Source of the DNA: a bacterium
Lineage (GTDB): Bacteria; ARS69
DNA: 64,000 bases
Assembly (NCBI GenBank): GCA_041393395.1
Contig: JAWKKG010000002.1
Location: forward strand, 124,468-188,467
Reading direction: 5' to 3'
The notes beneath the pieces are model-generated. The model saw only the letters and a list, made by a program, of their open reading frames with translations, was not told where the DNA came from and did not search any database. The translations under genes were made by a program, and so were the position numbers. Below are positions 1,212 through 61,747 of this stretch, piece by piece; position 1 is the stretch's first letter; every line of letters starts with the position of its first letter.

Positions 1212-2987
1212 ATGTCCGGATTCCTGCACCGCGCCCTCGTCTGCGGAGTGGCGGCCCTCGGCCTCGCGACTCCGGCCGAGGCGGCCATCCGTCGCGTCCC
1301 GACCGACTTCGTGACCCTGTTCCAGGCGATCTTCGAATCCGCGCCGGGAGATACGGTCCAGGTCGTGGGGAACGGCGGCGCGACCTTCCATCACGCGCAG
1401 CTCACGTTCGACAAGGACCTCACGATCCAGGGGGGATGGCGCGCGGATTTCGCGGTGCGCGACCCCGAGGTCTACGTGACGGTCGTTCGCGACACGACGA
1501 ATCTGTACAACAAGGCCCTGTTCCTCGTGGAGGGCTCACCCCGCCTGGTGTTCGACGGCATCCAGATCATCGGTGGTCAGATCGGGATCCGCTCGGAGGG
1601 CGGCGCGGACATCACCCTGCGCGACTGCACGATCCGGAGTCAGCGCAACGGCGCCGTGCCGAACACGCCGATCGGGCCGGCGGGCGGCGGCATCCGCATG
1701 GTGGGCGGCACGTTGCGGATCGAGAACACGCGGATCCAGAACATCGTCACCCGCACGGAAGGGGCGGGCATGGTGCTCGACGGCGTGTCCAGCTTCTCGG
1801 CGACGGGCCTGCAACTGGACAACGTGACGGCGGCCCGGCTCACCGGCGGTTCGAACGGCGGCGGGATCTGGGCGAGCGGCGTGCAGGACATCCTGATCGA
1901 GAACAGCACGCTGGAGAGTTGCTCGAGCGTCGCCGACGGCGGACTGCTGTTCGTCACCGGCGGCCCGGCGCTGTTGCGAGGATGCACGCTGCGGAACGGA
2001 CTCGCCTCGAGCGACGGTGGCGCGCTGGCGCTCGTCGAGGCCGGCGACGTGACGCTCGAGAACTGCGTGATGGAAGGCAATCGCGGTTTCTTCGGTGGCG
2101 GGATCCGCGCGGATGACTCGTCCCTGCTCACGCTGCGGGGATGCCGGATCGCGGAGAACGTCGCGCCGAACGAGGGGGCGGGTCTGTACCTGCACCGCAC
2201 CCCGTTCGAGTTCGAGAACTGCGAGTTCGAGGCGAACATCCGTCTCATCACGCCGCAGACGATCGTGGCCGAGGGGGCCTCGGCGCGCGTCATCGAATGC
2301 GACGGCTCCGTGACCGGAACGACGTTCACGAACGAGCGCTCCTCCGGGCGCGGCGGGAGCTGGTCGCAGATCGGCGGACTCGTCTCGTTCGACGGGTGCC
2401 GGTTCGAGAACTGCGAGTCCGGTGTGTTCGGAGGCGCGATCCAGATCGAGCTCGGCGGCGAGATCCAGGTGAGGAACTCCCTGTTCCACGGCAATCGCTC
2501 CAAGTTCGGCGGTTCGATCGCGACCTCGTTCACCGCCACCGTGAACATCGATCGGTCGACGTTCGTCGGCGACATCGCGGGGAGCGGTGGGGCGTCGGTG
2601 TACCTCGACACCGCCGCGATCGTGCGGTTCACGAACTCGCTCGCGTGCCTTGCGACGCGCGGGGACGTCATCTACTGCTCCGCGGCCACCCTGGAGGTCG
2701 ACCACTCCAACGTGTGGAACGACGATGCGGTAAACCAGCGCGAGGAGTACGGAGGCGCCTGCGGCGATCCCACCGGGACGAACGGCAACCTCGCGGTGAA
2801 CCCGGGTTTCTGCGTCCCCGCCGCGCCGGACTGGAGGCTGTCGGCCTCGTCGCCGCTGGTCGGGGCGGCCGCCGACGGGGGGGACATCGGCTGGTCCGGG
2901 GTCGGGTGCCCGGCGGCGGATCCGCTGTCGCTGGAGCCGACTTCCTGGGGGCGCCTGAAGGCGTCCTTCCGCCAGGGCGAACGCTAG
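1212..2987 (+). CDS. Secreted right-handed parallel beta-helix repeat protein (pectin-lyase fold) with the short C-terminal tag ...EPTSWGRLKASFR
   Basis: ATG at 1212 lies in frame inside the 714..2987 ORF; the upstream part of that ORF overlaps the hydrolase gene and is rejected. Signal peptide MSGFLHRALVCGVAALGLATPAEA. Repeated GG[AG]I/beta-helix turns and N-x-x-G motifs. The C-terminal module NVWNDD...NPGFC...SP...SWGRLKASFR is shared with the paralogs at 57209, 59238 and 43692. Confidence 0.75.
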   Translation: MSGFLHRALVCGVAALGLATPAEAAIRRVPTDFVTLFQAIFESAPGDTVQVVGNGGATFHHAQLTFDKDLTIQGGWRADFAVRDPEVYVTVVRDTTNLYNKALFLVEGSPRLVFDGIQIIGGQIGIRSEGGADITLRDCTIRSQRNGAVPNTPIGPAGGGIRMVGGTLRIENTRIQNIVTRTEGAGMVLDGVSSFSATGLQLDNVTAARLTGGSNGGGIWASGVQDILIENSTLESCSSVADGGLLFVTGGPALLRGCTLRNGLASSDGGALALVEAGDVTLENCVMEGNRGFFGGGIRADDSSLLTLRGCRIAENVAPNEGAGLYLHRTPFEFENCEFEANIRLITPQTIVAEGASARVIECDGSVTGTTFTNERSSGRGGSWSQIGGLVSFDGCRFENCESGVFGGAIQIELGGEIQVRNSLFHGNRSKFGGSIATSFTATVNIDRSTFVGDIAGSGGASVYLDTAAIVRFTNSLACLATRGDVIYCSAATLEVDHSNVWNDDAVNQREEYGGACGDPTGTNGNLAVNPGFCVPAAPDWRLSASSPLVGAAADGGDIGWSGVGCPAADPLSLEPTSWGRLKASFRQGER

Positions 2988-3381
2988 AATTCCCTTCGTT
3001 TTCCTGGACTTCACCGGATCTTCCGCGTCGCCGCGGCCCGGCTCGTTTGACTCGCGACGTCGCGGATTGCTAGACTGATCCCTCGTTCGGAGCGTGAGCT
3101 GCCCCCACGCACGAATCGATGGACCCTGATCGAGCAGCCCCAAACGACACCCTTTCGGCCCTGGTCCGGTCGGACGAGACCGACTCACTGAACCGAAGAA
3201 CATCCGATCGTCTGCCCGCTGGTCCTGCACCGGGGATTCTGTCATCGATGTCCTGCGATCCGAACGGGGCGCGACCCCGACCGGCCAACCCTTCGCTCCT
3301 CAGCTCGCACTGGGCCGTTTCACGCCCTGCCCGGCTCCTCGGTCCGATCCACGCACTTCCCAATCCCAAGAGGTGATCTCG

Positions 3382-6300
3382 ATGTCGATTCGCGTGCTCG
3401 CGAATGACGGGGCTCGTGCGCGTGTGTTTGCGCCATTGCGCTTCCTGCTGGTGGTCCTGGCATTGCTTGTGCCGGTCGGCGCCTCCGCGTCCGTCCTGAC
3501 CGCCCGCCTGCAGTTCGACGAGGCCGACCTGCGACTGGTCGACCAGAACGGAGCGCTCCGGGTGGCGCTCGTCGGCGAGACCGAGGTCGGCGGCGGGGAG
3601 GATGCGCCGTTGCCGATGGCGGTTCGGAGCTTCTACGTGCCCGCCGGCTACGAAGTGCGCGACGTCCGGGTCACTCCGGTCGATCGCGTGGAGGTCGCGC
3701 GCGCGGCGCGTCTCGTGCGGGAAGTCGCGCTCGACCCGGCGTCCGGTCGTCGTCCGTTCCCCGCGCCGGCGGTGGCGGGCGAGGGAGACCTGCATCCGGC
3801 GCGCACCGCGGTGACGCTCGGCGGCGGCGATCTCGGCGGTCATCGCGTGGAGTCGGTCGCCGTGTTCCCGGTGACCTGGAATCGCGCCACCGGCGCGCTG
3901 AGTCTCGCGCGGACCGTCGATCTCGAGCTCGAGCTCGCTCCGGTCGCGGCGCACGCGGAAGACCTCGTGGCGCTCCGTCCCGCGCCCGAGCGAGATCGTC
4001 TGTTCCTGGAGGCCGTGCGCGGCATGGTCTCGAATCCGGCCGACGTTCCGTTCGAGACGGACGAGCCGGCTCTGTCCCTGCCGGGCGGCTTCGCGCCGAC
4101 GGACCTTCCGAGCGTCGAGGGAAGCGGCGTGCAGATGGTCATCGTCACGACGGACGCGCTCGCGGCGGAGTTCCAGGGGCTCGCGGACTGGAAGACCAAG
4201 AAGGGTGTTCCGACCGTCATCCGTACGGTCGAGTGGATCGACGCGAACTACCCGGCCGGCCATGACGGCGCCGAGCGCGTCCGCATGTTCCTGAAGGACG
4301 CCTGGTCGAAGTGGGGCATCGGGATCGCGCTGCTCGGCGGCGACCACGACGTGGTGCCGATCCGGTTCGCGTGGAGCCGCTTCTTCTTCGGCGGCACCGG
4401 CGTGCCGACCGACCAGTACTACGCCTGCCTTTCGGGCGACTGGAACGCCGACGGCGACCAGTACTACGGCGAAGGCACGTACCAGCTCGACCCCGGAGAT
4501 CAGGTCGATCTGTACCCGGACCTCGTCGTCGGACGCGCGAGCGTGGAGAACGCGACCGAGGCGGCGACGTTCCGGACGAAGTCCCTCACGTACGAGAAGA
4601 ACCCGCCCGCGGGATACGTGGAAAAGGTCTGCTACCTCGCGGAGGTGCTGTTCCCGGACACGTGGGAGTACGGCGATCCGCCGGGCAACATCACGCTCGA
4701 CGGCAAGACGCTGACGGACGCGTTCGATCTGCATCTGCCCGTCGGCTGGACGCGTACGAAGTGCTACCAGTCGGACAACAATCTGGACCGGGCGCACGCG
4801 CTCACCCAGCTCTCCACCGGTCACCACCACCTGATGACGCTGATGAACCACGGCGACGCGTTCAAGTTCTCGGTCGGCAACGGCCTGAACCCGCTCATCT
4901 TCGTGGCGGACACGAACACGCTGACGAACGGCGATTACCTGATGTTCGTGATGGCGACCGCGTGCAATCCGAACCAGCTCGATCTGGAATGCCAGGGCGA
5001 GTCGTTCATGAACAACCCGACCGGCGGCGCCGTGGCGGTCATGGGACCCACGCGGGAAGACTTCCCGCTCTCGGCGTCGGACTACCACGAGTCGATGCTC
5101 GACCTCGCGTTCCGGGTGGGGATCACGGGATTCGGCGCGATGAACCAGCTGCACCGCGTGCCGTTCATCCCGATCGCCCAGACCGAGTCCACGCCCGACC
5201 GGTGGACGATGATGACGAAGATGCTCCTCGGCGATCCGGAGATCCGCTTCTGGACCGAGGAGCCGAAGGCGATGCAGGTCACCCATGTGCCGAGCGTGGC
5301 GCTGGGAACCCCCTCGATCACGGTGCACGTCGCGCAAACCGGGACGCCGATTCCGAACACGCTCGTGTGTATCAGCGATGCGAACGGGACCTATGCGCGC
5401 GGTCGTACGAACGCGGCCGGCGACGTGACGCTCGCGATCACGAGTTCTGCTACCGGCACGGTTTCGGTGGCGGCCACCGCGAAGAACTACCGCCCGAAGG
5501 AGAGCACGTTCTCGCTCACGGCGGCGGCCGGCGCGCAGCTCGCGCTCACGGGCGCCGTGCTGGACGATGACGCGATCGCGCCCTCTTCGGGGAACGGCGA
5601 TGGCGTCGTCGACGCCGGGGAGACGATCGAGGCGAACCTGTCGGTCAAGAACGCCGGCACCGTCACGGCGAACAGCGTCACGGCGACGGCGTCGATCGCC
5701 GCGGGCAGCAGCGCCACGTTCAACCTGCAGTACGCGGGCGTGGCCGATCCGTCGCGGGTGTTCGTGGGACCGGATGCGGTGAACCCTGCCGCGATTCCGT
5801 TCACCCTGAACTTCGCCGCGCCGAGCATCGACTACATCGGTCGCCCGAACATGAGCTTCGCGGCCGACTCGCTGTCCGACGCCGGCGTGTACCTCTGGCA
5901 GGACGACGAGGGCTGGCATCTCCGCTGGAGCACGGCCGGCGATTCCTCCGCGGTCACCGGCACGGTGACGACGGACGGGAAGATCCGCGCGACGCACACG
6001 CCGTTGCTCGAGGCCACGCTGGACTCCAGCAGCCTCAACGGCCCGGCGACCGTGCTGACGTTCGCGGGCACGACCACGGAGTCCGATCTCGTGGACGGCG
6101 TGGACTTCGCGATGTCGGACGCGTCGATGCTGACCGTGACCGGCGGCGGCAGCGCGAATCTCGGCAACATCACGGCCGGCGCCACGGCGGCCGGAACGAT
6201 CACGTTCGCGGTGTCGCCGAACGCGCGCGACGGCCAGGTCGGTTACGTGGACCTGACCTTCACGTCGACGCTCGCGAGCTGGACGGACGCGATCCCGGTC

Positions 6301-8553
6301 GTGTTCGCGGGTCCCGAGCTCGAGGCGTACGTCTTCGCGATCGACGACTCGAACAGCCCGCCGCTCTCCGGCGACGGCGACGGCATCGTCGAGGTCGGCG
6401 AGACGGTGCGACTCACGCCCACCGTGCTGAACCGAGGAACGGGCGCCGCCATCTCGGTCGATGGCGCGGCCACGGCGGCCGCCGGCATCACGTTCGTGGA
6501 CGCGGCGGATGCCTACGGCGACGTGGATCCGCTCGCTCAGACCGCCGGCACCGACGGCTACGTGTTCACCGTCACCTCGGCGGCGGGAACGTCCATCGAT
6601 CTCACGCTCACCGATTCGCTCGGTCGGACCACGGTCAAGAACATCGAGTTCGTGGCGCCGGCCGCGCCGGTGAACGTCGCGTTCGAATCCGGCTCCACGG
6701 AGATCACGGTCTCGTGGGATCCGGTCGCGGACGCGGACCTCGCCGGGTACAACGTCTACCGGAGCCCGACCTCCGGGTCCGGTCACACCCGCGTGAACTA
6801 CGAGCTGCTGCGTACGGGCTCGCGCTACGTCGACGAGGGCCTCGCGCTCGGGTCGATCCAGTTCTACTACCTGACGGCGGTGGACTCGTCCGGCAACGAG
6901 AGTCCGGCGTCGGCGGAGATCGAGGCGTGGACCACCATCCCGCAGGTCGGTGGCTTCCCGAAGGATGCGAACAGCAACGTGTTCAGCGGCATGACCATGG
7001 CCGACGCGGACAACGACGGCGACGGCCTCGAGCTGTTCGTGGGCTCGCAGGACTTCCGCATGTACGCGTGGGAAGACGACGGCTCGGACGTGGCCACCGA
7101 CTGGCCGGTCGCGGCGAACGCCGCGGTCTGGGCCACGCCGGCGCTCGGGGACCTCGACGGCGACAACCTGCTCGAGGTGATGTGGGGCGCGATGGACTCG
7201 CGATTCTACGTCACGCACCACGACGGTACGCCCGCGATCGGTCCGAATCGCTGGATCTTCGACGTGCAGGGTTCGAACCAGACCATGCGCGGCGCGCCGG
7301 TCATCGCGAACGTGGATGCGGATCCGGAGTACGAGTTCCTCGTGGGCACGGACTTCGGCACGCTCTACGGCTTCGAGCACGATGGCACGCCGCTGCCGGG
7401 TGCCGACTCGCTCGGCGTGATCTACACCGCGCCGCAGACGAACGAGTTTCCGCCGCGGATCTGGGGGCCGCTTGCGGTCGGCGACCTGGACGACAACGGG
7501 ACGATGGAGATCGTGTTCACGTGCTGGAACGATCGTCTGTACGTCATCGGGGCCGACGGCACCGATCGCCCCGGTTTCCCGATCCAGCATCCCGAGGACT
7601 TCCGCAACGGTCCGTCGCTCGGCGACCTGGACAACGACGGAACGCTCGAGATCGTCGCGGGGAACATCGACAGCAAGCTGTACGTGTGGAACCACGACGG
7701 CACGTCGTATCTCACCGGCACCAACGGCGTGTTCGCCGACCTGCCGGGCGAGATCCGGAGCCAGCCGGCACTGTGCCAGCTCGACGCGGATCCGGAGCTG
7801 GAGATCGTGGTCACCTGCATGGACGGCGCGATCTACGCGTTCAATCACGACGGCTCGGGCTTCACCCAGATCGGCGGGCTGCTCGCCATGCTCGATTCGG
7901 GTGACGGCATCTCGGCGAGCCCGATCGTCGTGGACGTGGACGGCGACGGCGACATGGAGATCCTCGTCGGCCATCGCAACGGCAGCTTCTACGGCGTGCA
8001 CCACACCGGCGCGCGCGTGGCGGGGCTCCCGATCCCGACGTCGCTCCAGATCTTCTCGACGGCGGCGGCCGGCGACATCGACAACGACGGAGACGTCGAC
8101 GTCGCGTTCGCGTCCTACGACGAGAGCGTGAACGTGCTCGACTTCCCGGGCGCGTCCACACCGGAGGCGTACGAGTGGCCGACGACGGGCGGCAACGTCC
8201 GGCGCACGTCGCTGTACGGCGAGCTCGCGGACGGCGGCGCGACGGACGTCACCCCGCTGCCGGGCAGCGCCGCGGTGCAGTTCGCGCTCTCGCAGAACAC
8301 CCCGAACCCGTTCCCCGGCGGCACCTCGATCGAGTTCGCGGTGCCGAAGACGCAGCACGTCACCCTGCGGGTCTACAACGTCGAGGGGCGTCTCGTGCGC
8401 ACCCTCGTCGACGAGTCCGTGCAGGCGGGGCGTGGTCGCGTGAACTGGGACGGTCGCGACGCCCAGGGTCGGGCGCTGTCCTCGGGCGTGTACTTCTACC
8501 GCCTCGACAACGGGGAGACGTCGGTGACCCGCAAGAGCGTGCTCCTGCGGTAG
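3382..8553 (+). CDS. Very large secreted multidomain protein: gingipain-like C25 cysteine peptidase domain, FG-GAP/VCBS beta-propeller repeats, a fibronectin-III domain, and a FlgD-Ig/T9SS-type C-terminal sorting domain
   Basis: ATG at 3382 is preferred over GTG at 3373 because AAGAGG sits 9 nt upstream. Signal peptide is present. C25 motifs: GGDHDVVP, NHGDAFKF (His) and ATACNPNQ (Cys). FG-GAP-like repeats: GDLDGDNLLEV, GDLDDNGTMEIV, GDLDNDGTLEIV, VDVDGDGDMEILV, GDIDNDGDVDVAF. FN3: VSWDPVADADLAGYNVYRS...YYLTAVDSSGNES. C-terminus ...GVYFYRLDNGETSVTRKSVLLR is a typical T9SS type-A CTD ending. Confidence 0.8.
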   Translation: MSIRVLANDGARARVFAPLRFLLVVLALLVPVGASASVLTARLQFDEADLRLVDQNGALRVALVGETEVGGGEDAPLPMAVRSFYVPAGYEVRDVRVTPVDRVEVARAARLVREVALDPASGRRPFPAPAVAGEGDLHPARTAVTLGGGDLGGHRVESVAVFPVTWNRATGALSLARTVDLELELAPVAAHAEDLVALRPAPERDRLFLEAVRGMVSNPADVPFETDEPALSLPGGFAPTDLPSVEGSGVQMVIVTTDALAAEFQGLADWKTKKGVPTVIRTVEWIDANYPAGHDGAERVRMFLKDAWSKWGIGIALLGGDHDVVPIRFAWSRFFFGGTGVPTDQYYACLSGDWNADGDQYYGEGTYQLDPGDQVDLYPDLVVGRASVENATEAATFRTKSLTYEKNPPAGYVEKVCYLAEVLFPDTWEYGDPPGNITLDGKTLTDAFDLHLPVGWTRTKCYQSDNNLDRAHALTQLSTGHHHLMTLMNHGDAFKFSVGNGLNPLIFVADTNTLTNGDYLMFVMATACNPNQLDLECQGESFMNNPTGGAVAVMGPTREDFPLSASDYHESMLDLAFRVGITGFGAMNQLHRVPFIPIAQTESTPDRWTMMTKMLLGDPEIRFWTEEPKAMQVTHVPSVALGTPSITVHVAQTGTPIPNTLVCISDANGTYARGRTNAAGDVTLAITSSATGTVSVAATAKNYRPKESTFSLTAAAGAQLALTGAVLDDDAIAPSSGNGDGVVDAGETIEANLSVKNAGTVTANSVTATASIAAGSSATFNLQYAGVADPSRVFVGPDAVNPAAIPFTLNFAAPSIDYIGRPNMSFAADSLSDAGVYLWQDDEGWHLRWSTAGDSSAVTGTVTTDGKIRATHTPLLEATLDSSSLNGPATVLTFAGTTTESDLVDGVDFAMSDASMLTVTGGGSANLGNITAGATAAGTITFAVSPNARDGQVGYVDLTFTSTLASWTDAIPVVFAGPELEAYVFAIDDSNSPPLSGDGDGIVEVGETVRLTPTVLNRGTGAAISVDGAATAAAGITFVDAADAYGDVDPLAQTAGTDGYVFTVTSAAGTSIDLTLTDSLGRTTVKNIEFVAPAAPVNVAFESGSTEITVSWDPVADADLAGYNVYRSPTSGSGHTRVNYELLRTGSRYVDEGLALGSIQFYYLTAVDSSGNESPASAEIEAWTTIPQVGGFPKDANSNVFSGMTMADADNDGDGLELFVGSQDFRMYAWEDDGSDVATDWPVAANAAVWATPALGDLDGDNLLEVMWGAMDSRFYVTHHDGTPAIGPNRWIFDVQGSNQTMRGAPVIANVDADPEYEFLVGTDFGTLYGFEHDGTPLPGADSLGVIYTAPQTNEFPPRIWGPLAVGDLDDNGTMEIVFTCWNDRLYVIGADGTDRPGFPIQHPEDFRNGPSLGDLDNDGTLEIVAGNIDSKLYVWNHDGTSYLTGTNGVFADLPGEIRSQPALCQLDADPELEIVVTCMDGAIYAFNHDGSGFTQIGGLLAMLDSGDGISASPIVVDVDGDGDMEILVGHRNGSFYGVHHTGARVAGLPIPTSLQIFSTAAAGDIDNDGDVDVAFASYDESVNVLDFPGASTPEAYEWPTTGGNVRRTSLYGELADGGATDVTPLPGSAAVQFALSQNTPNPFPGGTSIEFAVPKTQHVTLRVYNVEGRLVRTLVDESVQAGRGRVNWDGRDAQGRALSSGVYFYRLDNGETSVTRKSVLLR

Positions 8554-16231: not shown

Positions 16232-17530
16232 ATGAAACGCTCCCGCGGCCTCGCGGCCGCCGTCGTGCTCGGCGCGACGCTGGCGTCGCCGCCCGCGATC
16301 CGGGCCGACGCGACGTCGACGTCGGGTCCGGCCTCGCCCGCCCTCGCGGACTATCTGCAAGCGGCCGAGGCGAACAATCCCGCCCTCGCGGCCGCGCGCC
16401 ATGCGACCGACGCCGACGTCGCGACCGTCGCGCGCGCCGGATCGTGGCCCGATCCGCAGCTCTCGGTCGGCTGGTTTCTCTCGCCGGTCGAGACGCGGGT
16501 GGGACCGCAGGAGCAACGTCTTGCGCTGCGCCAGCGCTTGCCGTGGGCGCGCGGGACGGCGCGCGAGGCGGCGGCCCGCACCGCCGACGTTTCCCGCGCG
16601 CGTGCGGAGGAGATCCGCGCCACGCTCCGCCGCGACGTCGCGCAGGCGTGGTGGGACGCCTACCTCCTCGAGCGCACGATCGCGATCACGTCGCGCAACC
16701 TCGAGCTCGTGGTCGACCTGGAGCGAGTGGTGCGCGAGAAGTACCGGACCGGTGAGGCGGGGCGACTCGATCTCGGCCGGGCGCACATCGAGCTCGGTCG
16801 CGTGGAGGACCGCGTGCGCGGGCTCCGGGATCGCGTGCCCGCGGTGCGCGCGCGTCTCGCGTCGCTGCTCTCGCTCCCGGACGGTTCGTCGCTGCCGCTG
16901 CCGGTCGATGCGGACTCCGTGCCGTCGGCGCCGTCCTCCGATCGCGTCACCGCGCAGGTCGGACCGGCCGCCCCCCGTCTCGCCACCGCCGACGCGCGCG
17001 TGGAAGAGGCCGGCGCGAGGCGCGCGCTCGCCGGGCGCGCGTCCTGGCCGGACCTGATGCTCGGAGTGGAGTGGATCCGCACCGGCGACGCGCGCGCCGC
17101 GAACGTCGCCGGCAGCGGCGACGATCCGTGGGTCGTGAGCGTGACCGCGGATCTCCCGATCTTCCGCGGGAAGATCCGCGGCGCGGTCGAGGAGGCCGAG
17201 GCGCGCGAGGCCGCGACGCGCTCCGAACGCCGGCGCACGGAGGACGAACTCCGCGCGGCGGCCGAGAGCGCGCGCGTGGACTGGGCCGACGCGGATCGCC
17301 GGATCGCGCTCTACCGCGACGGGCTCGTGCCGGAGGCCGCGGACTCGCGCGAAGCCGCATTCGCGGCGTACCGGGCCGGCGACGCGACGTTCCTGGACCT
17401 CGTGGACGCGGAGCGCCTGCTGCTCGAGCTGTCCATCGAGGAGGAGCGCGCGCGGGCCGACCGCGGTCGCGCGGCGGCCGCTCTGGAATTCGTGACGGGC
17501 CGGGACTGGACCGGGGAGGGGATCCGATGA
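16232..17530 (+). CDS. cusC: TolC-family outer-membrane efflux protein (CusC/CzcC-like)
   Basis: GAGAGGAG RBS; signal peptide MKRSRGLAAAVVLGATLASPPAIRA; coiled-coil outer-membrane-factor repeats; 432 aa. Confidence 0.85.
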   Translation: MKRSRGLAAAVVLGATLASPPAIRADATSTSGPASPALADYLQAAEANNPALAAARHATDADVATVARAGSWPDPQLSVGWFLSPVETRVGPQEQRLALRQRLPWARGTAREAAARTADVSRARAEEIRATLRRDVAQAWWDAYLLERTIAITSRNLELVVDLERVVREKYRTGEAGRLDLGRAHIELGRVEDRVRGLRDRVPAVRARLASLLSLPDGSSLPLPVDADSVPSAPSSDRVTAQVGPAAPRLATADARVEEAGARRALAGRASWPDLMLGVEWIRTGDARAANVAGSGDDPWVVSVTADLPIFRGKIRGAVEEAEAREAATRSERRRTEDELRAAAESARVDWADADRRIALYRDGLVPEAADSREAAFAAYRAGDATFLDLVDAERLLLELSIEEERARADRGRAAAALEFVTGRDWTGEGIR

Positions 17531-43269: not shown

Positions 43270-43285
43270 TGGCACCAACGTTGCT
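43270..43285 (+). promoter_or_regulatory. Sigma-54 (-24/-12) promoter TGGCAC-N5-TTGCT
   Basis: TGGCACcaacgTTGCT has exact GG-N10-GC spacing. It lies 178 bp downstream of the sigma-54 activator gene and upstream of a small ORF and the LTD/C-tag protein gene. Confidence 0.6.
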
Positions 43286-43691: not shown

Positions 43692-44672
43692 ATGCGATTC
43701 CCTGCTTCTCGTGCCGTGCTCCTGCTCGCACTCCTCGTCGCGGCGCCGGTCCGCGCCGACGTCCTGCTCAACGAGTTCGGGCGCACGGGCGCGGGCGCGA
43801 GCACCGTCGAGCTCTACAACGCGCTCCCGGACACGGTGGATCTGACGGGCTGGTTCCTGCGCAATCAGGACGGCCTCGAGGTCGCGCTGTCCGGCAGCAT
43901 CGCACCCGGCGAGCACCAGACCACCTCCACCGGGAACCTCGTGGTGGAGGGCGGCCAGATCGAGCTGTACGACGGGACGCTGCTGCAGCGGGACGAGGTC
44001 TCCTTCGGCGATCAGGGTGGGGCGCCGCTGCCGCCGCCGGGAGCTTTCTCGTGCGCGCGCTCTCCCGACGGCACGGACACCGACGACGACGCGGCCGACT
44101 GGAACCTCGACTCCACGCCGACCTTCGGCGCCACGAACGATCATCTGCCCGCGAACCTCGGCTTCTCGAACGTCGCCATCAACGAGGTCGGGCGCAGCGC
44201 GTTCGCGTTCGGCCGTCTCGCATGCCCGACGCCCCGCATCGAGCTCCACAACAAGGGCGTGACGCCGGTGAACCTGAACGGCTGGTTCCTCACCGATGGC
44301 CGCCAGGTCGTACCCCTGAGCGGTCCGCTGCCGGCCAACGGCTTCGTCGTCGTGACGGACTTCCCGCCGCTGTTCTGCTTCGAGGAGACGCATGTGCTCT
44401 ACCTGTTCGGGCCGGCCGGGCGCCGCTTCGATCAGGTCGGAGTGCTCGGCTCGTCGCTGCCGCCGGGCAGTCTCGAGGACAGCTGGCAGCGCGTGCCGGA
44501 TGGATCCGGCCCGTACGACGGCTACGACTACGCGACCAGCGGTGGTTCCGTCACGTGGGTGATCCGCACGTCCACGTTCGGGCAGCCGAACGGGAGCGGT
44601 CCGATCACGGATGCACCGGAGCTCGACACGGAAACCTGGGGACGTCTGAAGGCCGGCTACCGGGTCCGCTGA
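43692..44672 (+). CDS. Secreted protein with two lamin-tail-domain (LTD) repeats and the ...ETWGRLKAGYR C-terminal tag
   Basis: GAGGA RBS. Signal peptide MRFPASRAVLLLALLVAAPVRA. LTD pattern twice: VLLNEFGRTG...VELYNALPDTVDLTGWFLRNQDG and VAINEVGRSAF...IELHNKGVTPVNLNGWFLTDGRQV. C-terminus TETWGRLKAGYRVR. The upstream part of the 42702 ORF is rejected. Confidence 0.75.
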   Translation: MRFPASRAVLLLALLVAAPVRADVLLNEFGRTGAGASTVELYNALPDTVDLTGWFLRNQDGLEVALSGSIAPGEHQTTSTGNLVVEGGQIELYDGTLLQRDEVSFGDQGGAPLPPPGAFSCARSPDGTDTDDDAADWNLDSTPTFGATNDHLPANLGFSNVAINEVGRSAFAFGRLACPTPRIELHNKGVTPVNLNGWFLTDGRQVVPLSGPLPANGFVVVTDFPPLFCFEETHVLYLFGPAGRRFDQVGVLGSSLPPGSLEDSWQRVPDGSGPYDGYDYATSGGSVTWVIRTSTFGQPNGSGPITDAPELDTETWGRLKAGYRVR

Positions 44673-53686: not shown

Positions 53687-53830
53687 GGTTCGGGAATCCC
53701 GGATGCCGACCCGAGGTCGGCTCGAATACGTTCATATCAATGGAGTCGACGTCCGGCGACTCCCCAGCGCGCCTCTCCCCCGCGCGCTCGCCGAGACTCC
53801 TTCCACGCTCGTTGCGGCCTCCGAGCGTCT

Positions 53831-53882
53831 GCGACCGGATCCGCCGGTCGCTACTGCCCTCCCTCCCGGGAGACGCAAGATG
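53831..53882 (+). promoter_or_regulatory. Conserved 5' leader, copy A: 8-bp-arm palindrome GCGACCGG-ATCCG-CCGGTCGC, a C-rich tract, SD inside the palindrome CTCCCGGGAG, and the ATG
   Basis: Near-identical over 52 bp to 59189..59240 (copy B), which sits upstream of the paralogous beta-helix gene. Confidence 0.55.
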
Positions 53883-56800
53883 CGCAGGTTCTTGCAAGTC
53901 CTGGCACGAATCGTGCCCCCCCCCATTTCTGGAAACAGGTAGCGCGCTCGGAATCGCGGCACTCGCTCTGATACCCTGGTCCACAGCCCGGGCGGACGTT
54001 ACCGACGCCCGGCTCTGGGAGCCCGCCGTGCAGATGACGTTTGCCGAGTTCGACGTGCAGGTGCTGGCCAAGCAGCTCGCCCGCCGATCGGGTGGGGGGT
54101 TCCATCAGATCGTGGAAGCGTGGTCCGACAGCCTCGGTCGCAACAACGGCTTCGGCTGGTACCTCGAGGTCGGACCGTCCCTCGATTGGGCTTCGGCCTG
54201 GCAGGATCGCGAGCTGTTCACTTTCGTTCCCGACACGACTGTCGGAAACAAGGTCCCGTACGGGCATTCCGACTTTCGCATGCTCGTCAGCAACGACGAC
54301 GACGTACACGCGTTCTACGAGGCGAAGTTCTATCCGCCCGATTCGATCCGAGCAATGGTCGCTTACAAACGTCGGGGTGGGGTGTCGTGGGACTCCGCGT
54401 CCGACCCGGTGTTTCTCGCTCCCGGCTGCGTGAGTGACTCGCCGCGCCCCTACTACGATAGCGAAACAGACATCATGCACCTGATGTTCACGGCGGCGGC
54501 TACCACGGGATGCTACCCCGCTCCTCCGTCCGGCACGGACCTGCAGGTCTATACGAGAAAGGCAGTGTCCGCCGCAGACTCCGCTTGGGCGCCGCTGACG
54601 TACATGTACCCGAGCATTGGCCTCGGTCCGATCGGGGGCGGTGTGTTCGCGGAAGCCGACACGGTGCACTTCTTCGGGAGTCGAACAGAGAACCAAAGCG
54701 GGTGGAAAGTCGTCACGGTGATCCACCGGAGCGGACTCCGCCCGCCCCCGGCGAGTACTGGACGTTCGCCCACGTCGATACGCTCGACTCTTTTCTGGTG
54801 CCTGGTGATGGCGATCCCCGATCGGAGCCCGAGGACCAGCCCACACCCTTCGAAGGGGCCAGCGGCGACTCCCTCTACGTGGCCTGGGCTCGACCGATGG
54901 GTACGACCGGCGCCGACGAGGTGATGTTCGCCGTCTACGATCTTCGGGACACTTTATGGACCCCGGACAACTGCCCCACGGGTAACTGCGGTTCGCTTCC
55001 CCCGTTCGGTCTCCAGCTCACGACGACGGATGATTCCGCGGAGGACTCGTGGGATCCAAAGGTGGTCGTAGACGCGGCCGGCGCCGTTCACGTCTTCTAT
55101 CGCGTCGGCGATCCCTCGACCCTGCAGCACTTGTTCAACTCTGGCGACCCGACCAACCTCGCGGACTGGAGCGAGCCGACGATCCTGTCGTTCGAGGAGG
55201 AGCACACGGCGAGACTGCCGACGGTGGTCGCCGACGCTGACACCCTGTGGGTCGCGTACTCCGCTCAGTCTCTGACCGGATGCACGGCGAATTGCCGGCA
55301 GGGCTTCTTCAAGCTCGGCACCCGTCACGTGAACTGGGGCGGCACGGTCAACGTCCGCTCGGACTTCGTCGTGGCGTCGGCCGGCACGCTCTCGATCGCG
55401 CCGGGCACCACGGTGATCGCGGGCGCGGCTCCCGTCGGAAACCTGGGCAATCGCGCGGACGACGTCGAGATCGTGGTGGGCGGAACCCTGCTCGCGGAAG
55501 GAACGTCGACCGAGGCGGTGACCTTCACCGGAGATGTCGCGACCCCGGGATCCTGGGGAGGCATCTTGTTCCGCGACACCGCCGACGACTCGCCGAGTTC
55601 GATCTCGTACGCCGACTTCGAGTATCCGGAGTTCGCGGTGCAGGTCGACTCGCTGGCCGGGACGCTGTTTCGGCCCACGTTTGCGGGAGTCGCCCAGGCC
55701 GACGTCTACGTTGATCGGAGTACACGGTTGCCGCTGGGATCGGCCTGGTGGTTCGAATCCCCCGTGAGCATCCGCGTTGCTTCTGAGGACGCCGCCCAGC
55801 CGGGTGGTGACATCTCCATCACCATCGACGGCGACCTGTACGCGCAGCCCGCGGGTGGCCGGGTGCAGGTTCTGTCCGCGTCCCCGACCGCAAGCGGGGA
55901 GGACTGGGAGGGGATGGTCGTCCGGTCTGCGGGCACGATCATCGCCTCGAACCTCGAGATCGGGCACTGCCGCAATCCCCTGACTCTGCTTGCCGCGGAC
56001 CACGCGCAGCTCTTCGACAGTGAACTTCACACCTTCGCGGGAGACGGTGTGTTCGACTGGGGCTCAGATGCGCGCATCGAGCGATGCCTCATTTGGAACG
56101 GCGGGCTCGATGTGCAGGCGAGCGCTGGATCCGCGATTCGCAGCATCAGCTCGGCGACTTGGGCTCTTGCCGACACCATCGACGGTCGGTTTTCGCACGG
56201 AATCTGGAGCTCGTATTCATACGGATTCTGCACCGCGGCCCCGATTCCGCTCGGGAAGACCATCCAGATCGACGGGAATGTGATCCGAGGCCCCGGCGTC
56301 GAACACCCTTCGGAGACGGGACGCGGACTGTACGTCGAGTGGATCTGTCACGGAATCGACGCGCTGGTGTCGGACAACTGTGTCTCGCAGTGGCCGCAGC
56401 AGGGCATCTCGCTCTCCAATGCGGCCAACACCCAGGTCGCGTGCAACTGGGTGGACAGTACGGAAGTCGGACTGAAACATTTCCGGGGCGATCATGTTCC
56501 CTCGGGTGACGCGGACGTCCAGTTCCGACGGAACGTTGTCAGTGCCTGGGAGACTCGCGGCATCAACGTGACCTCTCCGGAGGGGTTCGAAATGGCGGAT
56601 CTCTCCACAGCGGCGCGGAACGAGGTGCGCCAGGATGGCCAGGACGACACCTTCGTTCGGTTTCGCCCCACGAGCAGCACGCAAGGTGCCGAGTTCGATG
56701 TGAGCAACCAGCTCTGGGTTGACCCCACCGGCGCCGTTCTCACGGATCCTGCGGACGTGCTCACCGACTGCGACTTCAACCTGCTGTCGCCCATCGTGAT

Positions 56801-57206
56801 CACCTCGCTGCTGACGTCCCAGGAGCGCTGCGCGAGCATAGCGACGTGCCCAGGAAGCTCGCAGGCGGTGGCCCGGCGAGGCGCAGACCGCGCACCGGAA
56901 CCAGGAGCAGAACGTGGCGACCCGCCACGCCGTTTCGAGAGCTTCGTGGAAACGGTGGCCGGGCGAGCGCGAGTCGTGCTGGCCGGTCCGGCGGACACGG
57001 AGCCGCCCGTGCAGGGGCGTGTCTACGACGTCGCCGGGCGTCTCGTTCAGGAGGTCCATGGCACCTTGGTGTCTCCCGGTCGGTACGTGCTCGAATGGAA
57101 CGGCTCGACTGGGGCAGGCCATCAAGCGGCAGACGGTGTGTACTTCTTGCGCGTCGAAGCCCCGGGCCATCATCGAACGCACAAGATCGTCCGGATCCGG
57201 AGGTAG
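53880..57206 (+). CDS. Large secreted protein: BNR/sialidase-like N-terminal region, right-handed beta-helix region, and a FlgD-Ig/T9SS-type C-terminal domain. As sequenced, the reading frame is broken twice at homopolymeric C tracts (C9 at 53916..53924 and C5 at 54745..54749), so it may be a pseudogene, a sequencing artefact or phase-variable.
   Basis: Frame 0 gives ATG 53880 MRRFLQVLARIVPPP..., which stops at 53942. Frame 1 (53925..54749) continues a signal-peptide-like ...FLETGSALGIAALALIPWSTARA|DVTD... and plausible protein up to ...WKVVTVIHRSG. Frame 0 again (54750..57206) runs GEYWTFAHVD... to the C-terminus ...GRVYDVAGRLVQEVHGTLVSPGRYVLEWNGS...GVYFLRVEA.... Removing one C at the first tract and adding one at the second restores a single ORF of about 1105 aa. 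Confidence 0.55.
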
Positions 57207-57208: not shown

Positions 57209-58513
57209 ATGCGACGACTTTCGATTTCGGGCGGAGTGATCGCCCTTCTCTCGACAGGGTTCGCTTCGATCGACGTGGCTTCCGCGACGACTCTACGGGT
57301 CCCCGAGGACTTCCCGACCATTCAAGCGGCCGTGGACGCGGCGGGTCCGATCGACGTCGTGGACGTCGCCCCGGGCACGTGGTCGGACGCGGAGACGCGT
57401 TCCGTCTGGAACGGCGGGATGTACGTCAACGTCCGGTCGGTCGTGTTCTTGAAACCGGGAATCACCGTGCGCTCTCGGAGTGGCGCCGAAGCCACGGTCA
57501 TCGACCTGTCGCTGAACCCCGGTCCGGGGTTCCAGACCCCCGTGGTCTATCCGGGACAACAGGCGGGGCCCGCGACGATCCAGGGCTTCACGGTGCTCGG
57601 AGCCGGCTCGGGCGGAGGCGGCATCAGTTCCCTCGCGGCGCAGAAGCTCATCGTCCGCGACTGCATCGTGCGGGACATCCACACCGGGGGACGTGCGATC
57701 ACGACGGCCAACGGCGGTGGGCTGGAGATCTACGACACCCTCGTGGAGAACGTCACCTTGCTCGGCGGCACCGCGGTCCGCGCCATCAGCGGCGGAAGTC
57801 TGAAGATGATCCGGACTACGATTCGCGACAACTCGGCGGGTGGGGTCTACTCCACGGTTCCGACGATCCTCGAGGATTGCAACTTCGTCCGGAATCGGAC
57901 GACGCAAGTGGGAGCAGGAGCCAACCTCCAGGGGCCGTCCGAAGTCACGCGGTGTCTGTTTCAGGAGAATGTCTCGCTGGAGGATCCAGGCGGGGGATTG
58001 GTCGTCTCGTCGTCACCCGCTGTAGTCGAGGGATGCACTTTCGCTCGCGATTCCTGCGGCGCCACGGGAGCGGCGGCGGGGATGTGGGTGGCTTATGCGC
58101 CGGGACTCTCGGTGATTCGCAACAACACATTCGTCGGGTGCCATTCTCCGGTCTTCCCTGCATCTGCGTTCGGCGTGTCCAGTAGCGTCGTCGAGTTCTC
58201 GAACAACATCGTCGCTGGCAGCACCGGATCGGCCGCACTGCACAACGTTGGTGGCACGATCACGGGGGGCTGCAACGACTACTGGAACAACGAGGAAGGG
58301 GACTTCGAGGCCTGGACCCCGCTCCCCACCGACTTGTCCGCCGATCCACTCTTTTGCGATCCCGAAGCTCACGATTTCCGACTGCACAGCAACTCTCCTT
58401 GCGCGCCGGATCAGAACCCGACCTGCGGTCAGGTCGGAGCTTGGTCCGTCGCGTGCGGTTCCGTGTCCATCGAGCCCCTGTCCTGGGGGCGAATCAAGGG
58501 GGCGTACCGATGA
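57209..58513 (+). CDS. Secreted right-handed beta-helix protein, paralog A, with the ...SWGRIKGAYR C-terminal tag
   Basis: GGAGG RBS 3 nt after the upstream stop. Signal peptide MRRLSISGGVIALLSTGFASIDVASA. N-terminal LRVPEDFPTIQAAVDAA is a pectin-lyase-fold hallmark. C-terminal module GCNDYWNNEEGDF...DPLFCDPEAHDFRLHSNSPC...CGSVSIEPLSWGRIKGAYR. 434 aa. Confidence 0.8.
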   Translation: MRRLSISGGVIALLSTGFASIDVASATTLRVPEDFPTIQAAVDAAGPIDVVDVAPGTWSDAETRSVWNGGMYVNVRSVVFLKPGITVRSRSGAEATVIDLSLNPGPGFQTPVVYPGQQAGPATIQGFTVLGAGSGGGGISSLAAQKLIVRDCIVRDIHTGGRAITTANGGGLEIYDTLVENVTLLGGTAVRAISGGSLKMIRTTIRDNSAGGVYSTVPTILEDCNFVRNRTTQVGAGANLQGPSEVTRCLFQENVSLEDPGGGLVVSSSPAVVEGCTFARDSCGATGAAAGMWVAYAPGLSVIRNNTFVGCHSPVFPASAFGVSSSVVEFSNNIVAGSTGSAALHNVGGTITGGCNDYWNNEEGDFEAWTPLPTDLSADPLFCDPEAHDFRLHSNSPCAPDQNPTCGQVGAWSVACGSVSIEPLSWGRIKGAYR

Positions 58514-59188: not shown

Positions 59189-59240
59189 GCGACCGGATCC
59201 GCCGGTCGCACCTGCCCTCCCTCCCGGGAGACGCAAGATG
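59189..59240 (+). promoter_or_regulatory. Conserved 5' leader, copy B (palindrome, C-rich tract, SD, ATG)
   Basis: GCGACCGGATCCGCCGGTCGCACCTGCCCTCCCTCCCGGGAGACGCAAGATGCG differs from copy A at only 2 positions. Confidence 0.55.
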
Positions 59241-60575
59241 CGAGGCCCTCGATCGATTGCACGCCGGAGACTTGTGTGCGGCGCGGCGACTGGTGGTGAT
59301 CCGATGAGATTGCGAATCACTCTCGCCGCGGGGATCGTCTTCGGTGTCGGCCTTGCTGCGGCCGACGCGAGCATCCTCCGGGTTCCTGAGGACTACTCGT
59401 CTGTCCTCGCGGCGGTCGACGCCGCGGTTTCGGGCGACAGCGTGCTCGTTCAGCCGGGCACTTGGACCGACACGGCGATCCGGATCGCTCCCACCGGAGC
59501 GTACGTCAAGTCCACGCTGTTCGTGAAGCCGGGCATCACCGTGCTGGGGCTCGGTGGACCGGAGGTCACGACGCTCGATGTTGGTCCGGAAGTTGGTGCG
59601 TTCGCCGTGACGATTACAAACAATGCTCCTGGCTCGGCGCCGTCGTACGTGATTGGCTTCACCATCACGGGTGGCGGGACAGGTGTTGGCGGATACGGCG
59701 GATCTCCCCTGGAGCTCCACGATTGCCGGATCGTCGACAATCCGCGGCAGGCGGCCAACATCGCCTACACCCGCTTGACCTTGGTCGGAGGAACAATCAC
59801 GGGAAATGCAGAGGGTCAGTCGAGCCCGCAGTGGGGATGTGTGTTCGGCCACGAAAGCGCCTTGGAACTGCGACAAGTCACGATCGAACGAAACTCAAAC
59901 GTCTTCGGTGTCGTTTTCGATAGCCAACCACAGTCTGTTCGCTTGATCGACTGCACGTTTCTCGACCAGACGCTCGCCTGCCGCGTCTGGGACTGCCCGG
60001 ACTTCGTGGTCGAGAACTGCTCGTTCGTCCGGTGTTCGGACGGTGGCATTCAAGTGCGAAACTGCCAGGGTCGGATCGAGTTCACGACGTTCGCTTATGA
60101 CACGTCCGGGGCGGGTGGGGGAGCCCAGCTGAGTCGCTCGACGATCGAAGTCAGCAACAACACGTTCTATCGCTGCCACACCGACGGATCCGCCGCCGCA
60201 CTGTCCGTTTCGTTCACGGACGGCGGCGTCCACAACAACATCTTCACGGGCTGCACGACACCCCGCGGCACGGTCTCCTTCGGCGGCGGCACCCAGCACC
60301 CCTCCACCGGCTGCAACCTCTTCTGGGACAACGAGGGCGACGACTTCTGGAACGACTGGGTCCCCGCCCCCACCGACATCGAGGCGGACCCCGAGTTCTG
60401 CAACGAAACCGTCCTCGACCTGACGCTGCACTCCACGTCCCCCGCCGCCTCCGCGAACTCCGCCTGCGGTCTCCTCGGCGCGTTCGATGTCGGCTGCGGC
60501 TCCGTCTCCGTCGACGCCACGAGCTGGGGTCGCCTCAAGAACCTCTACCGGAGCTCGGATCATGAAGACCGCTAG
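59238..60575 (+). CDS. Secreted right-handed beta-helix protein, paralog B, with the ...SWGRLKNLYR C-terminal tag
   Basis: The conserved-leader ATG at 59238 is in frame; an alternative start ATG at 59303 gives a clean signal peptide MRLRITLAAGIVFGVGLAAADA. LRVPEDYSSVLAAVDAA; beta-helix repeats; C-terminal module GCNLFWDNEGDDF...DPEFCNETVLDLTLHSTSP...CGSVSVDATSWGRLKNLYRSSDHEDR. Confidence 0.8.
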   Translation: MRGPRSIARRRLVCGAATGGDPMRLRITLAAGIVFGVGLAAADASILRVPEDYSSVLAAVDAAVSGDSVLVQPGTWTDTAIRIAPTGAYVKSTLFVKPGITVLGLGGPEVTTLDVGPEVGAFAVTITNNAPGSAPSYVIGFTITGGGTGVGGYGGSPLELHDCRIVDNPRQAANIAYTRLTLVGGTITGNAEGQSSPQWGCVFGHESALELRQVTIERNSNVFGVVFDSQPQSVRLIDCTFLDQTLACRVWDCPDFVVENCSFVRCSDGGIQVRNCQGRIEFTTFAYDTSGAGGGAQLSRSTIEVSNNTFYRCHTDGSAAALSVSFTDGGVHNNIFTGCTTPRGTVSFGGGTQHPSTGCNLFWDNEGDDFWNDWVPAPTDIEADPEFCNETVLDLTLHSTSPAASANSACGLLGAFDVGCGSVSVDATSWGRLKNLYRSSDHEDR

Positions 60576-61291: not shown

Positions 61292-61747
61292 CTAGCGGTA
61301 GATCGACTTCACCCGACCCCAGCTCTCGCTCTCCACGGAGATCGCCGGGAACTCCGGGGCGCCCATCTGGATCCACTCGCGGATCACGTCGATGGTCGTC
61401 TGCGGCAGCGGGCCGCCGATGAGCGGCATCTGGTTGCCCACGATCCACGGGCAGTTCTCGAGCTTGCAGATGATGTAGCTGTTGTCCGGATCGAACGGCG
61501 CCACGCGAACCGCCGTGGGCACCTCCACGCTCGGCACGTCCACGAGGAAGCTGAACGCCTGGCCCTCGCGCAGGTCGAGGTTCGCCTGCATCGCGCCGCC
61601 GTGGCAGGCGGCGAGCGCGCAGCCCGGCGTGAAGACGTTCGCCTGGATGTCCTGCAGGGTGGGCTCGAACGGACCGCCCGCGGCCCGGGCGCTGCCGAAG
61701 CCGAGGAGGGTCAGAACGGAAAGAGTCGCAATCGTCGCAACGCGCAT
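61292..61747 (-). CDS. Small secreted Cys-motif protein carrying the same ...SESWGRVKSIYR C-terminal tag
   Basis: Start at ATG 61747. Signal peptide MRVATIATLSVLTLLGFGSARA. Contains CALAACHG (Cx4CH) and CKLENC. 151 aa. The 216-aa upstream extension is rejected. Confidence 0.6.
   Translation of the reverse strand: MRVATIATLSVLTLLGFGSARAAGGPFEPTLQDIQANVFTPGCALAACHGGAMQANLDLREGQAFSFLVDVPSVEVPTAVRVAPFDPDNSYIICKLENCPWIVGNQMPLIGGPLPQTTIDVIREWIQMGAPEFPAISVESESWGRVKSIYR

Follow-up and report, generated by a model that had tools for sequence, protein, structure and literature searches.

Again and again, a C-terminal sorting signal has led to the discovery of the machine that reads it, as with sortase, exosortase, rhombosortase, archaeosortase and the type IX secretion system (T9SS). 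Here we describe a candidate signal of this kind, a peptide of 10-18 residues (...P-[TV]-P-x-x-x-[ST]-[ST]WGR[ILV]Kxx[YF]R) that five exported proteins have in common at their C-termini. The five are encoded in a 64-kb stretch of DNA (64,000 nucleotides, 69.5% G+C; contig JAWKKG010000002.1, positions 124,468 to 188,467) from a bacterium of the GTDB lineage ARS69. We refer to the peptide as the tag and to the whole stretch as the window. C-terminal sorting signals are already known as a kind; the architecture of the tag is new.

Two classes of described signals come closest. The type A C-terminal domain (CTD) of T9SS cargo (TIGR04183 / PF18962; FlgD_ig-type PF13860) is read by SprA/Sov with PorV. 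Like the tag, it forms the very C-terminal end of proteins that carry signal peptides and are diverse in their passengers, is found in the same loci, takes the identical junction in beta-helix and lamin tail domain (LTD) homologues, and favors a basic last residue. However, it is a folded domain of ~70-100 aa, whereas a tethered helix is predicted for the 10-18 aa of the tag. The tripartite CTERM signals (IPTL-CTERM, PF18203 / TIGR04174; PEP-CTERM/exosortase, LPXTG/sortase, GlyGly-CTERM/rhombosortase) resemble the tag in having a short C-terminal signature followed by basic residues, and in an overlapping set of passenger families (choice-of-anchor C/L/W, ScyF, PepA). The transmembrane helix between signature and basic end that defines this class is, however, missing from the tag, and we know of no dedicated sorting enzyme for it.

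Three further systems are relevant. The lipoprotein export signal (LES) of Bacteroidetes, reportedly described by Lauber, Cornelis and Renzi in 2016, is a precedent without a folded domain: a very short linear peptide (~5-10 aa) sets surface delivery of Sec-exported proteins in the Fibrobacteres-Chlorobi-Bacteroidetes (FCB) group. LES is N-terminal, acidic and lipoprotein-specific, whereas the tag is C-terminal and basic, and only 7 of 96 tagged proteins have a lipobox-like site. C-terminal amphipathic anchors are represented by the C-terminal helix of Escherichia coli PBP5 and PBP6, which are Sec-exported, and by the membrane-targeting sequences of MinD and FtsA. Like the tag, they are short predicted helices with aromatic and basic residues at the C-terminus of a soluble protein; unlike the tag with its near-invariant W, G and K, they are weakly conserved in sequence, and the hydrophobic moment of the tag is not above random. 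Braun lipoprotein (Lpp) ends in ...YRK, and its C-terminal Lys is joined to peptidoglycan by L,D-transpeptidases (Ldt). Both Lpp and the tag have Tyr-Arg at the end of the chain with an essential Lys close by, but this Lys is the last residue in Lpp and lies 4 residues before the final Arg in the tag, and no conserved Ldt gene was found near tagged genes by neighbor clustering.

A common C-terminal peptide on five exported proteins

A previous reading of the window made from its letters alone (the sequence-only reading) had reported one motif at five C-termini. The checked translations agree: the products of tagged genes 1 to 5 end in ...LSLEPTSWGRLKASFRQGER, LDTETWGRLKAGYRVR, SIEPLSWGRIKGAYR, VDATSWGRLKNLYRSSDHEDR and VESESWGRVKSIYR, each followed by a stop codon (Table 1). 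Translated in all six frames, the window had exactly 5 occurrences of WG[RK][LIVM]K, each in one of the five tags and 9-16 codons ahead of a stop. Exactly 5 occurrences, at the same sites, were likewise obtained with [ST]WG.[LIVM]K..[YF], and all lie 9-17 residues ahead of a stop. The back-translated DNA pattern had 5 matches in the window, versus 0.00 expected from 100 dinucleotide-preserving shuffles. The five tag DNAs differed synonymously (GGG/GGA/GGT, CGC/CGT/CGA/CGG, CTG/ATC/CTC/GTG, TCC/ACC/AGC), indicating that conservation acts on the peptide and not on the DNA. Tagged genes make up 5 of the ~48 called genes of the window.

The N-terminal signal peptides claimed for all five proteins look Sec-type (e.g., MRFPASRAVLLLALLVAAPVRA/DV and MRVATIATLSVLTLLGFGSARA/AG). 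For tagged gene 4, the second Met, at ~59304 (MRLRITLAAGIVFGVGLAAADA), is the more likely start of the signal peptide. The passengers were also as previously described: Pfam scans gave Beta_helix three times, a two-stretch LTD once, and one protein without a family. The last of these, the product of tagged gene 5, matched no family in NCBIfam either.

Distribution, position and consensus of the tag

The DNA pattern WSNTGGGGNCGNNTNAAGNNNNNNTWYCGN, which is GC-biased in its codons (Arg = CGN, Lys = AAG), was scanned over one genome per species (185,579 species) and gave at least 119 matches at no fewer than 116 loci. Of the 119 matches listed, 94 had a stop codon directly behind the final Arg (binomial p ~1e-100 vs 3/64), and ~108 ended within a few residues of the C-terminus. 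Eight non-terminal matches among those listed, regarded as chance matches, were all in other phyla (Pseudomonas, Niastella, Oscillospiraceae, Planctomycetaceae, Desulfobacterales, Chloroflexia, Terriglobia, and a metagenome-assembled genome [MAG] of Acidobacteriota). A ninth, in an Eisenbacteria MAG (locus L013), may have arisen through loss of the stop codon or through a frameshift.

Nearly all terminal matches listed were in Candidatus Eisenbacteria or allied FCB-group MAGs. When record titles were counted for the terminal-tag loci among the matches listed, 50 loci belonged to Candidatus Eisenbacteria / Eiseniibacteriota, 40 to unclassified 'bacterium' MAGs, 6 to 'Gemmatimonadota' MAGs, 3 to Krumholzibacteriia, and 1 each to Latescibacterota and Zixiibacteriota; 7 were in MAGs labeled with other phyla and possibly mis-binned. 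Bona fide terminal tags were present on short contigs of non-FCB MAGs assigned to Limnocylindria (L033, L046), Udaeobacter (L062), Phycisphaera (L044), Actinobacteria RBG_16_64_13 (L071), Gammaproteobacteria (L083) and Acidobacteriota (L035). The passengers of these non-FCB carriers were Eisenbacteria-like (NHL, cupredoxin-like), so the contigs may be mis-binned; if they are, the tag could be used as a contamination marker.

A profile of the five tails, searched against a set of 5.8 billion proteins, gave 21 matches. All were short metagenomic proteins, and all but one (...ALFQ) end in ...[ST]WGR[LIV]Kxx[YF] plus zero to a few residues; this search is a confirmation and not a census. The relaxed motif [ST]W[GSA]x[ILVM]Kxx[YFW] revealed 19 further sites in the fetched loci (L001-L117). 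All 19 were C-terminal and none was internal, and several adjoin another tagged gene.

The consensus was C(-9/-8)-x-P-[TV]-P-[VAT]-x-x-[ST]-[ST]WGR[VIL]K[AS][L]YR, and 82 of 97 non-redundant tags ended exactly at its Arg. Tail extensions of 1-15 extra residues were tolerated. Several positions that were free in the search pattern were conserved all the same: P at -7 (41%), [TV] at -6 (74%), P at -5 (61%), [VAT] at -4 (86%), Cys at -8/-9 (about 1/3) and L at +7 (48%). Across the homologue sets described below, W, G, K and Y/F were nearly fixed, whereas position 3 (R in Eisenbacteria) and position 4 (Thr in the LTD family) were variable.

Tagged genes were often tandem or near-identical duplicates (L074, L092, L049, L006, L018, L072), which suggests recent paralogue expansion. 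Locus L074 (OZ244210.1 1840001-1848000) had two 224-aa copies, both ending in ...DFCIPPVSTDPFSWGRIKARYRN, and a third gene with the relaxed motif.

Export signals and passengers of tagged proteins

Signal-peptide-like N-termini were found in 79 of 96 tagged open reading frames (ORFs) and in 226 of 690 other coding-like ORFs from the same loci (Fisher p = 1.3e-20). The tag thus does not occur equally in cytoplasmic proteins. The median length of the tagged proteins was 251 aa (n = 96).

The passengers were mutually unrelated. In Pfam, the 96 tagged proteins matched 33 families in total, including LTD (10), NHL (7), Beta_helix (7), cupredoxin (3), a beta-lactamase fold, a phosphoesterase, DUF642, TIMP and CHRD. 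NCBIfam gave matches to choice-of-anchor W (1.6e-53), L (9.7e-57) and C (1.2e-24), and to ScyF (an NHL PEP-CTERM protein, 2.9e-66) and PepA, families with PEP-CTERM archetypes; halocyanin/plastocyanin was also recognized. The 'choice-of-anchor' families are defined by their occurrence upstream of differing C-terminal anchoring signals. One trait of the CTERM class is therefore present in tagged proteins: a C-terminal signature on signal-peptide proteins with diverse passengers that include such domains. The only NCBI names encountered for tagged proteins were 'hypothetical protein', 'lamin tail domain-containing protein' and 'right-handed parallel beta-helix repeat-containing protein'.

Exchange of the tag for known C-terminal signals

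Two passenger families were followed through their homologues. In the beta-helix family (the product of tagged gene 3 and its homologues, n = 120), the tag regular expression matched 109 proteins and ~5 more had near-variant ends. Five of the 120 had a FlgD_ig-like CTD end instead (FlgD_ig was on the Pfam record for 2 of these and was confirmed here for 2), and one partial protein stopped at a CTD-like start. All these endings were located directly behind the same ...SPCAP..CGLIGAxPVGC module.

In the LTD family (homologues of the product of tagged gene 2, n = 30), most proteins were tagged and had ~330 aa; 4 homologues (~405 aa) had a FlgD_ig CTD at the same junction. A further homologue, the metagenomic protein P0156 (405 aa), had an IPTL-CTERM motif there (34.6 bits). 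This motif spans residues 308-331; ~74 residues with more hydrophobic stretches follow, which places it away from the protein end. In the alignment, ...PTLSEWG of P0156 coincided with ...P[TV]P...[ST][ST]WG of the tag. The element [ST]-x-W-G, common to both, could reflect either common ancestry or convergence, as judged from the alignment.

No protein among those examined had both tag and CTD, and FlgD_ig/Por_Secre_tail was absent from the 25 most frequent of the 33 Pfam families of the 96 tagged proteins. CTD proteins often adjoin tagged genes, so the two signals coexist in the same loci. These findings demonstrate that the tag is interchangeable with two known signals on homologous passengers.

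A proposed sorting or anchoring role for the tag

The sequence-only reading had suggested that the motif serves in sorting or anchoring and is not a T9SS CTD. C-terminal position (the place taken by known cell-surface signals), conservation, signal-peptide association, passenger diversity including choice-of-anchor families, and junction exchange all point the same way. We put at roughly 60% the probability that the tag serves proteins exported by Sec in Eisenbacteria and allied FCB phyla as a short, linear C-terminal signal for sorting or anchoring, read by a putative dedicated envelope receptor. Two lines of reasoning accompany this proposal. A soluble protein exported by Sec in a diderm bacterium would require a further signal only if it is to go beyond the periplasm or to be held in one place. 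W, G and K hardly vary across paralogues and phyla, which favors recognition by a protein over generic lipid binding.

A tagged protein would be exported through its N-terminal signal peptide, and its passenger would fold in the periplasm. The last ~18 residues would then be exposed: first a linker rich in Pro and Thr (often C-x-P-[TV]-P-[VAT]-x-x-[ST]) and then [ST]-W-G-x-[ILV]-K-x-x-[YF]-R, with which the chain usually ends. A putative dedicated envelope receptor or sorting machine would bind this peptide, presumably as a predicted 2-turn helix presenting W, [ILV], [LM], Y and the invariant Lys. The machine would set the location of the protein in the envelope, by delivery to, or retention at, the outer membrane or cell surface. 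T9SS CTDs make the same kind of location decision for homologous passengers, and IPTL-CTERM-type signals have been proposed to. The reading by a receptor, the final location of the protein, and whether or not the tag is cleaved are matters that we infer; all functional statements made here derive from comparative genomics of uncultured organisms.

A bolder and more tentative proposal is that the tag is the address label of a new Eisenbacteria/FCB envelope-sorting pathway, parallel to T9SS, that handles a large share of the secretome. On this same proposal, which is possible but rather doubtful at present, the machine of that pathway would carry out outer-membrane translocation or surface attachment and would read a ~10-residue peptide with neither a transmembrane helix nor a folded domain.

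Several points weigh against a sorting role read by a dedicated receptor. No recurrent candidate for a receptor, protease, transpeptidase or sortase was found beside tagged genes when neighboring ORFs of the loci listed and of the window were clustered. Some passengers (cupredoxins, the beta-lactamase-fold enzyme) are classically periplasmic. The signal-peptide predictor was crude and home-made, with a high background (33% of controls). AlphaFold2 confidence for the tag itself was only moderate to low. The phyletic picture is a sample, because it is based on the matches listed and on a GC-biased pattern. All carriers are uncultured MAGs and therefore offer no experimental handle.

Comparison with the T9SS CTD and other described signals

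It is conceivable, but unlikely, that the type IX machinery itself reads the tag. On this view a tagged protein would be T9SS cargo whose signal has been shortened drastically, and its fate might differ, for instance release where PorU would otherwise attach it. Three observations are consistent with this idea: the carriers are Eisenbacteria and allied FCB MAGs, T9SS-type CTD proteins are abundant in the same loci, and tag and CTD replace each other at the same junction on homologous passengers in two families. So is the preference for a basic last residue in tags and CTDs alike: Arg was last in 118 of 120 tags with one residue after Y/F, and R/K was last in 40 of 79 longer tag tails and 21 of 27 CTDs, versus 22% of controls. 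The strand-type hydrophobic moment of the 10-mer was also somewhat high (0.68 vs 0.39 +/- 0.21 for shuffles).

Profile searches spoke against it. In Pfam and NCBIfam, isolated tails (n = 8) matched no CTD or curated sorting-signal model at E<=10, and the five full tagged proteins matched no CTD profile (TIGR04183, PF18962, PF13860, PF13585) at E<=1 and no model over the tail region. There was thus no hidden Markov model (HMM) likeness to Por_Secre_tail, FlgD_ig or CHU_C. The positive controls, 3382-8553 and 54510-57206, did match CTD profiles. A position-specific scoring matrix (PSSM) was built from the last 9 residues of 36 FlgD_ig-type CTD-like protein ends (fetched loci and homologue sets). 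It scored tags at -10.3, control C-termini at -11.1, shuffled tags at -10.8 and left-one-out CTDs at +10.4. Since tags were rated no better than controls, we rejected the possibility that the tag is the last strand of a T9SS CTD. MAFFT placed ...TKAxYR of LTD tags against ...TKAIVRTR of CTD homologues, but the PSSM revealed no general likeness. The near-invariant W-G, and with it the W-G-x-[ILV]-K core, was missing from the CTD ends listed. In addition, AlphaFold2 predicted a helix and not a strand, T9SS recognition works on a folded beta-sandwich of ~70-100 aa whereas the conserved module here has ~10-18 aa, and the tag also exchanges with IPTL-CTERM, which is no T9SS signal.

Other described signals fitted no better. 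IPTL-CTERM and PEP-CTERM HMMs did not match the tag; the match of the former to P0156 shows that the test can detect such a short signal in a full-length protein. No transmembrane helix follows the signature, as only 7-8 residues (R-[ILV]-K-x-x-[YF]-R) come after W-G. The beta-signal of outer-membrane proteins, a terminal aromatic residue on a barrel strand, was not found: the tag typically ends in Arg, and its passengers are soluble folds. As a candidate model for the tag, the Pfam and NCBIfam scans of full proteins and tails gave only CD24 (E = 0.12), and a known model as the source of the tag was rejected. A profile search of the PDB with 58 tails gave 0 matches at E<=10. The motif strings were absent from 8 million full texts, further literature searches gave nothing relevant, and no paper joining Eisenbacteria with type IX secretion was found. 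The sequence-only reading had named a match to a described sorting domain as a point to check; no such match emerged from Pfam, NCBIfam or the CTD terminal-strand PSSM. The tag is thus apparently undescribed with respect to Pfam (models to 2025), NCBIfam release 20 (June 2026), the PDB and the searchable literature. With ~10-18 residues, no transmembrane segment and no folded domain, in diderm bacteria, it is not covered by known architectures.

Predicted structure and possible membrane affinity of the tag

AlphaFold2 modeled both passengers tried with confidence (mean pLDDT 92 for the beta-helix protein of tagged gene 3 and 87.5 for the LTD protein of tagged gene 2). In the former, the tag forms a helix at 426-433 (block pLDDT 72-75) behind a lower-confidence linker; in the latter, the helix is at 316-324 (Trp at 315; pLDDT ~45-55) and the linker at 305-314 is below 50. 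The tag is thus predicted to be an independent module, a short helix behind a linker, in two different passengers.

These models bear on another unlikely explanation, namely that the tag is a receptor-independent peripheral anchor, a cationic aromatic amphipathic helix sticking to a membrane surface or to lipopolysaccharide. A 2-turn helix on a flexible tether in both models would suit such an anchor. When the consensus is drawn as a helical wheel, a 120-degree arc contains W, [ILV], [LM] and Y and is bordered by R, K and R; interfaces typically feature Trp, Tyr and basic residues, and the starting S/T could be a helix N-cap. However, the Eisenberg helical moment of the 10-mer was 0.42, versus 0.40 for shuffles (46% of which were at least equal), and its mean hydrophobicity was negative (-0.32). 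An amphipathic helix was therefore not supported by hydrophobic moment and was retained as a rival only. Further, ~9 residues would give weak affinity, and W, G and K are near-invariant over hundreds of paralogues whereas known amphipathic anchors are poorly conserved. Nor would an anchor explain why the tag is exchanged with an export signal like the T9SS CTD.

Genes adjoining tagged genes

All-against-all clustering of 1,159 neighboring ORFs (the 116 loci listed plus the window) yielded only one CTD-linked cluster and one cluster of TPR/sigma-54-activator/kinase genes. The CTD-linked cluster had 35 members, mostly CTD-ended, in 30 of the loci and the window.

This result bears on the idea that the tag is a site of covalent attachment, processing or degradation: its Lys would be cross-linked to peptidoglycan or another acceptor, W-G-R-x-K would be cut by a sortase-like or C25-type peptidase, or the tail would be a C-terminal degron for a periplasmic tail-specific protease. 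We consider this very unlikely. The invariant Lys and the Y-R at the chain end recall ...YRK of Lpp, and a large C25-family peptidase gene adjoins tagged gene 1. However, the Lys is not C-terminal, 1-15 extra tail residues are tolerated, and no recurrent L,D-transpeptidase, sortase or Prc-like gene was found beside tagged genes. The C25 protein matches the PorU model over its CTD alone. A degron would be hard to rationalize on so many exported proteins, which make up about a tenth of the genes called in the window.

An explanation without any sorting role, in which the tag would recur by chance, cap the passenger structurally or be a nucleic-acid element overlapping gene ends (terminator, regulatory RNA), found no support and has almost no probability, given that 5 sites were observed and zero expected by shuffling, that synonymous variation shows selection on the peptide, that the passenger folds are unrelated, and that both AlphaFold2 models set the tag behind a lower-confidence linker.

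Organization of the window

The features of the window are given in Table 1. The genes around the tagged ones are ordinary housekeeping genes.

Table 1. Tagged genes, tags and other features of the 64-kb window (positions are those of the window)
Feature	Position	Strand	Description
Tagged gene 1	1212..2987	+	Signal peptide and right-handed beta-helix, 591 aa; PF13229 E = 3.8e-24
Tag 1	2925..2987	+	LSLEPTSWGRLKASFR, QGER extension, stop; core SWGRLKASFR at 2943-2972
Peptidase_C25 and FG-GAP protein, untagged	3373..8553	+	~1,720 aa (1,723-1,726 by start codon); directly downstream of tagged gene 1
Cus-like heavy-metal efflux operon	16232-23581	+	Unconnected with the tag
ORF in efflux operon	19461-22883		Presumed RND pump, judged without domain scan
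TPR and sigma-54-activator gene	39937-43092		AAA+/Fis HTH
Sigma-54 promoter	43270-43285	+	Perfect consensus (TGGCACCAACGTTGCT); between the TPR and sigma-54-activator gene and tagged gene 2
Tagged gene 2	43692..44672	+	Signal peptide and two LTD stretches, 326 aa
Tag 2	44619..44672	+	ELDTETWGRLKAGYR, VR, stop
Region of apparently frameshifted beta-helix gene	53206-57206	+	Upstream frame with signal-peptide-like start, ends 54924
Beta-helix protein, untagged	54510..57206	+	FlgD_ig-type CTD at end; directly upstream of tagged gene 3
Tagged gene 3	57209..58513	+	Signal peptide and beta-helix passenger, 434 aa
Tag 3	58454..58513	+	SVSIEPLSWGRIKGAYR, stop; tag end is exact protein C-terminus
ORF between tagged genes	58510-59124	+	No Pfam match
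Tagged gene 4	59238..60575	+	Beta-helix passenger
Tag 4	60495..60575	+	VSVDATSWGRLKNLYR, SSDHEDR extension, stop
ORF between tagged genes	60670-61191	+	No Pfam match
Tagged gene 5	61292..61747	-	Signal peptide and small Cys-containing domain, 151 aa
Tag 5	61292..61342	-	AISVESESWGRVKSIYR, stop

The C25-family protein directly downstream of tagged gene 1 comprises Peptidase_C25 (E = 4e-45), Ig-like, fn3 and FG-GAP repeat regions and a T9SS-type CTD (FlgD_ig/Por_Secre_tail). The CTD that had been read from the sequence on 3382..8553 was borne out by this match. The protein was rejected as the T9SS sortase PorU; because the PorU match is confined to the CTD portion, it looks like gingipain-like cargo and is not called a sortase.

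A second T9SS-type CTD had been placed on an ORF at 53880..57206. The CTD is present, but this interval is not one ORF: it contains 3 in-frame stops and is open only from 54510. The upstream frame has a signal-peptide-like start (...LGIAALALIPWSTARA/DV, ~53.95 kb). The sequence looks like that of a CTD-bearing beta-helix gene with a frameshift near 54.85 kb, either a pseudogene or an assembly error. The upstream 269-aa part had no Pfam match.

The product of tagged gene 2 is identical to the NCBI MAG protein R3B81_00715. The TPR and sigma-54-activator gene precedes tagged gene 2, and TPR-containing sigma-54-activator-like or kinase-like genes adjoin tagged genes in ~18 of the 116 other loci listed. 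In view of the promoter and these neighbors, some tagged genes may be in sigma-54/enhancer-binding-protein regulons.

Of the two ORFs between the clustered tagged genes, the one at 58510-59124 has a signal-peptide-like start (MKPRAISLVLAVLAAATSVHA). Its 4-nt overlap with the stop of tagged gene 3 suggests that the two are transcribed together.

In the product of tagged gene 5, a C-x4-C-H-G motif (FTPGCALAACHGG) is accompanied by a second Cys pair (ICKLENCP); its small Cys domain may bind haem or a metal. The metagenome fragment P0009 is an apparent homologue, tag-ended and with a common ...C-x-L-E-x-CP...GQQMPLIGGPLPQ... region. The tagged protein of locus L054 (tail GAPEFP...(E)xx[ST]WGRVK) is another apparent homologue, judged on the unaligned tail only.

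The efflux operon encodes an OEP outer-membrane factor, a CusB-like membrane-fusion protein with HMBD domains, and a YHS/TRASH-domain protein.

Significance

The tag is very abundant in a phylum known solely from metagenomes, and it swaps with T9SS CTDs on homologous proteins. With it, the exported and probably surface-directed proteome of Eisenbacteria and related bacteria could be predicted simply from sequence, and it is a bait for finding the putative receptor. If the tag does feed T9SS, this would challenge the view that a folded CTD is a T9SS requirement. The tag would also justify a new annotation model.

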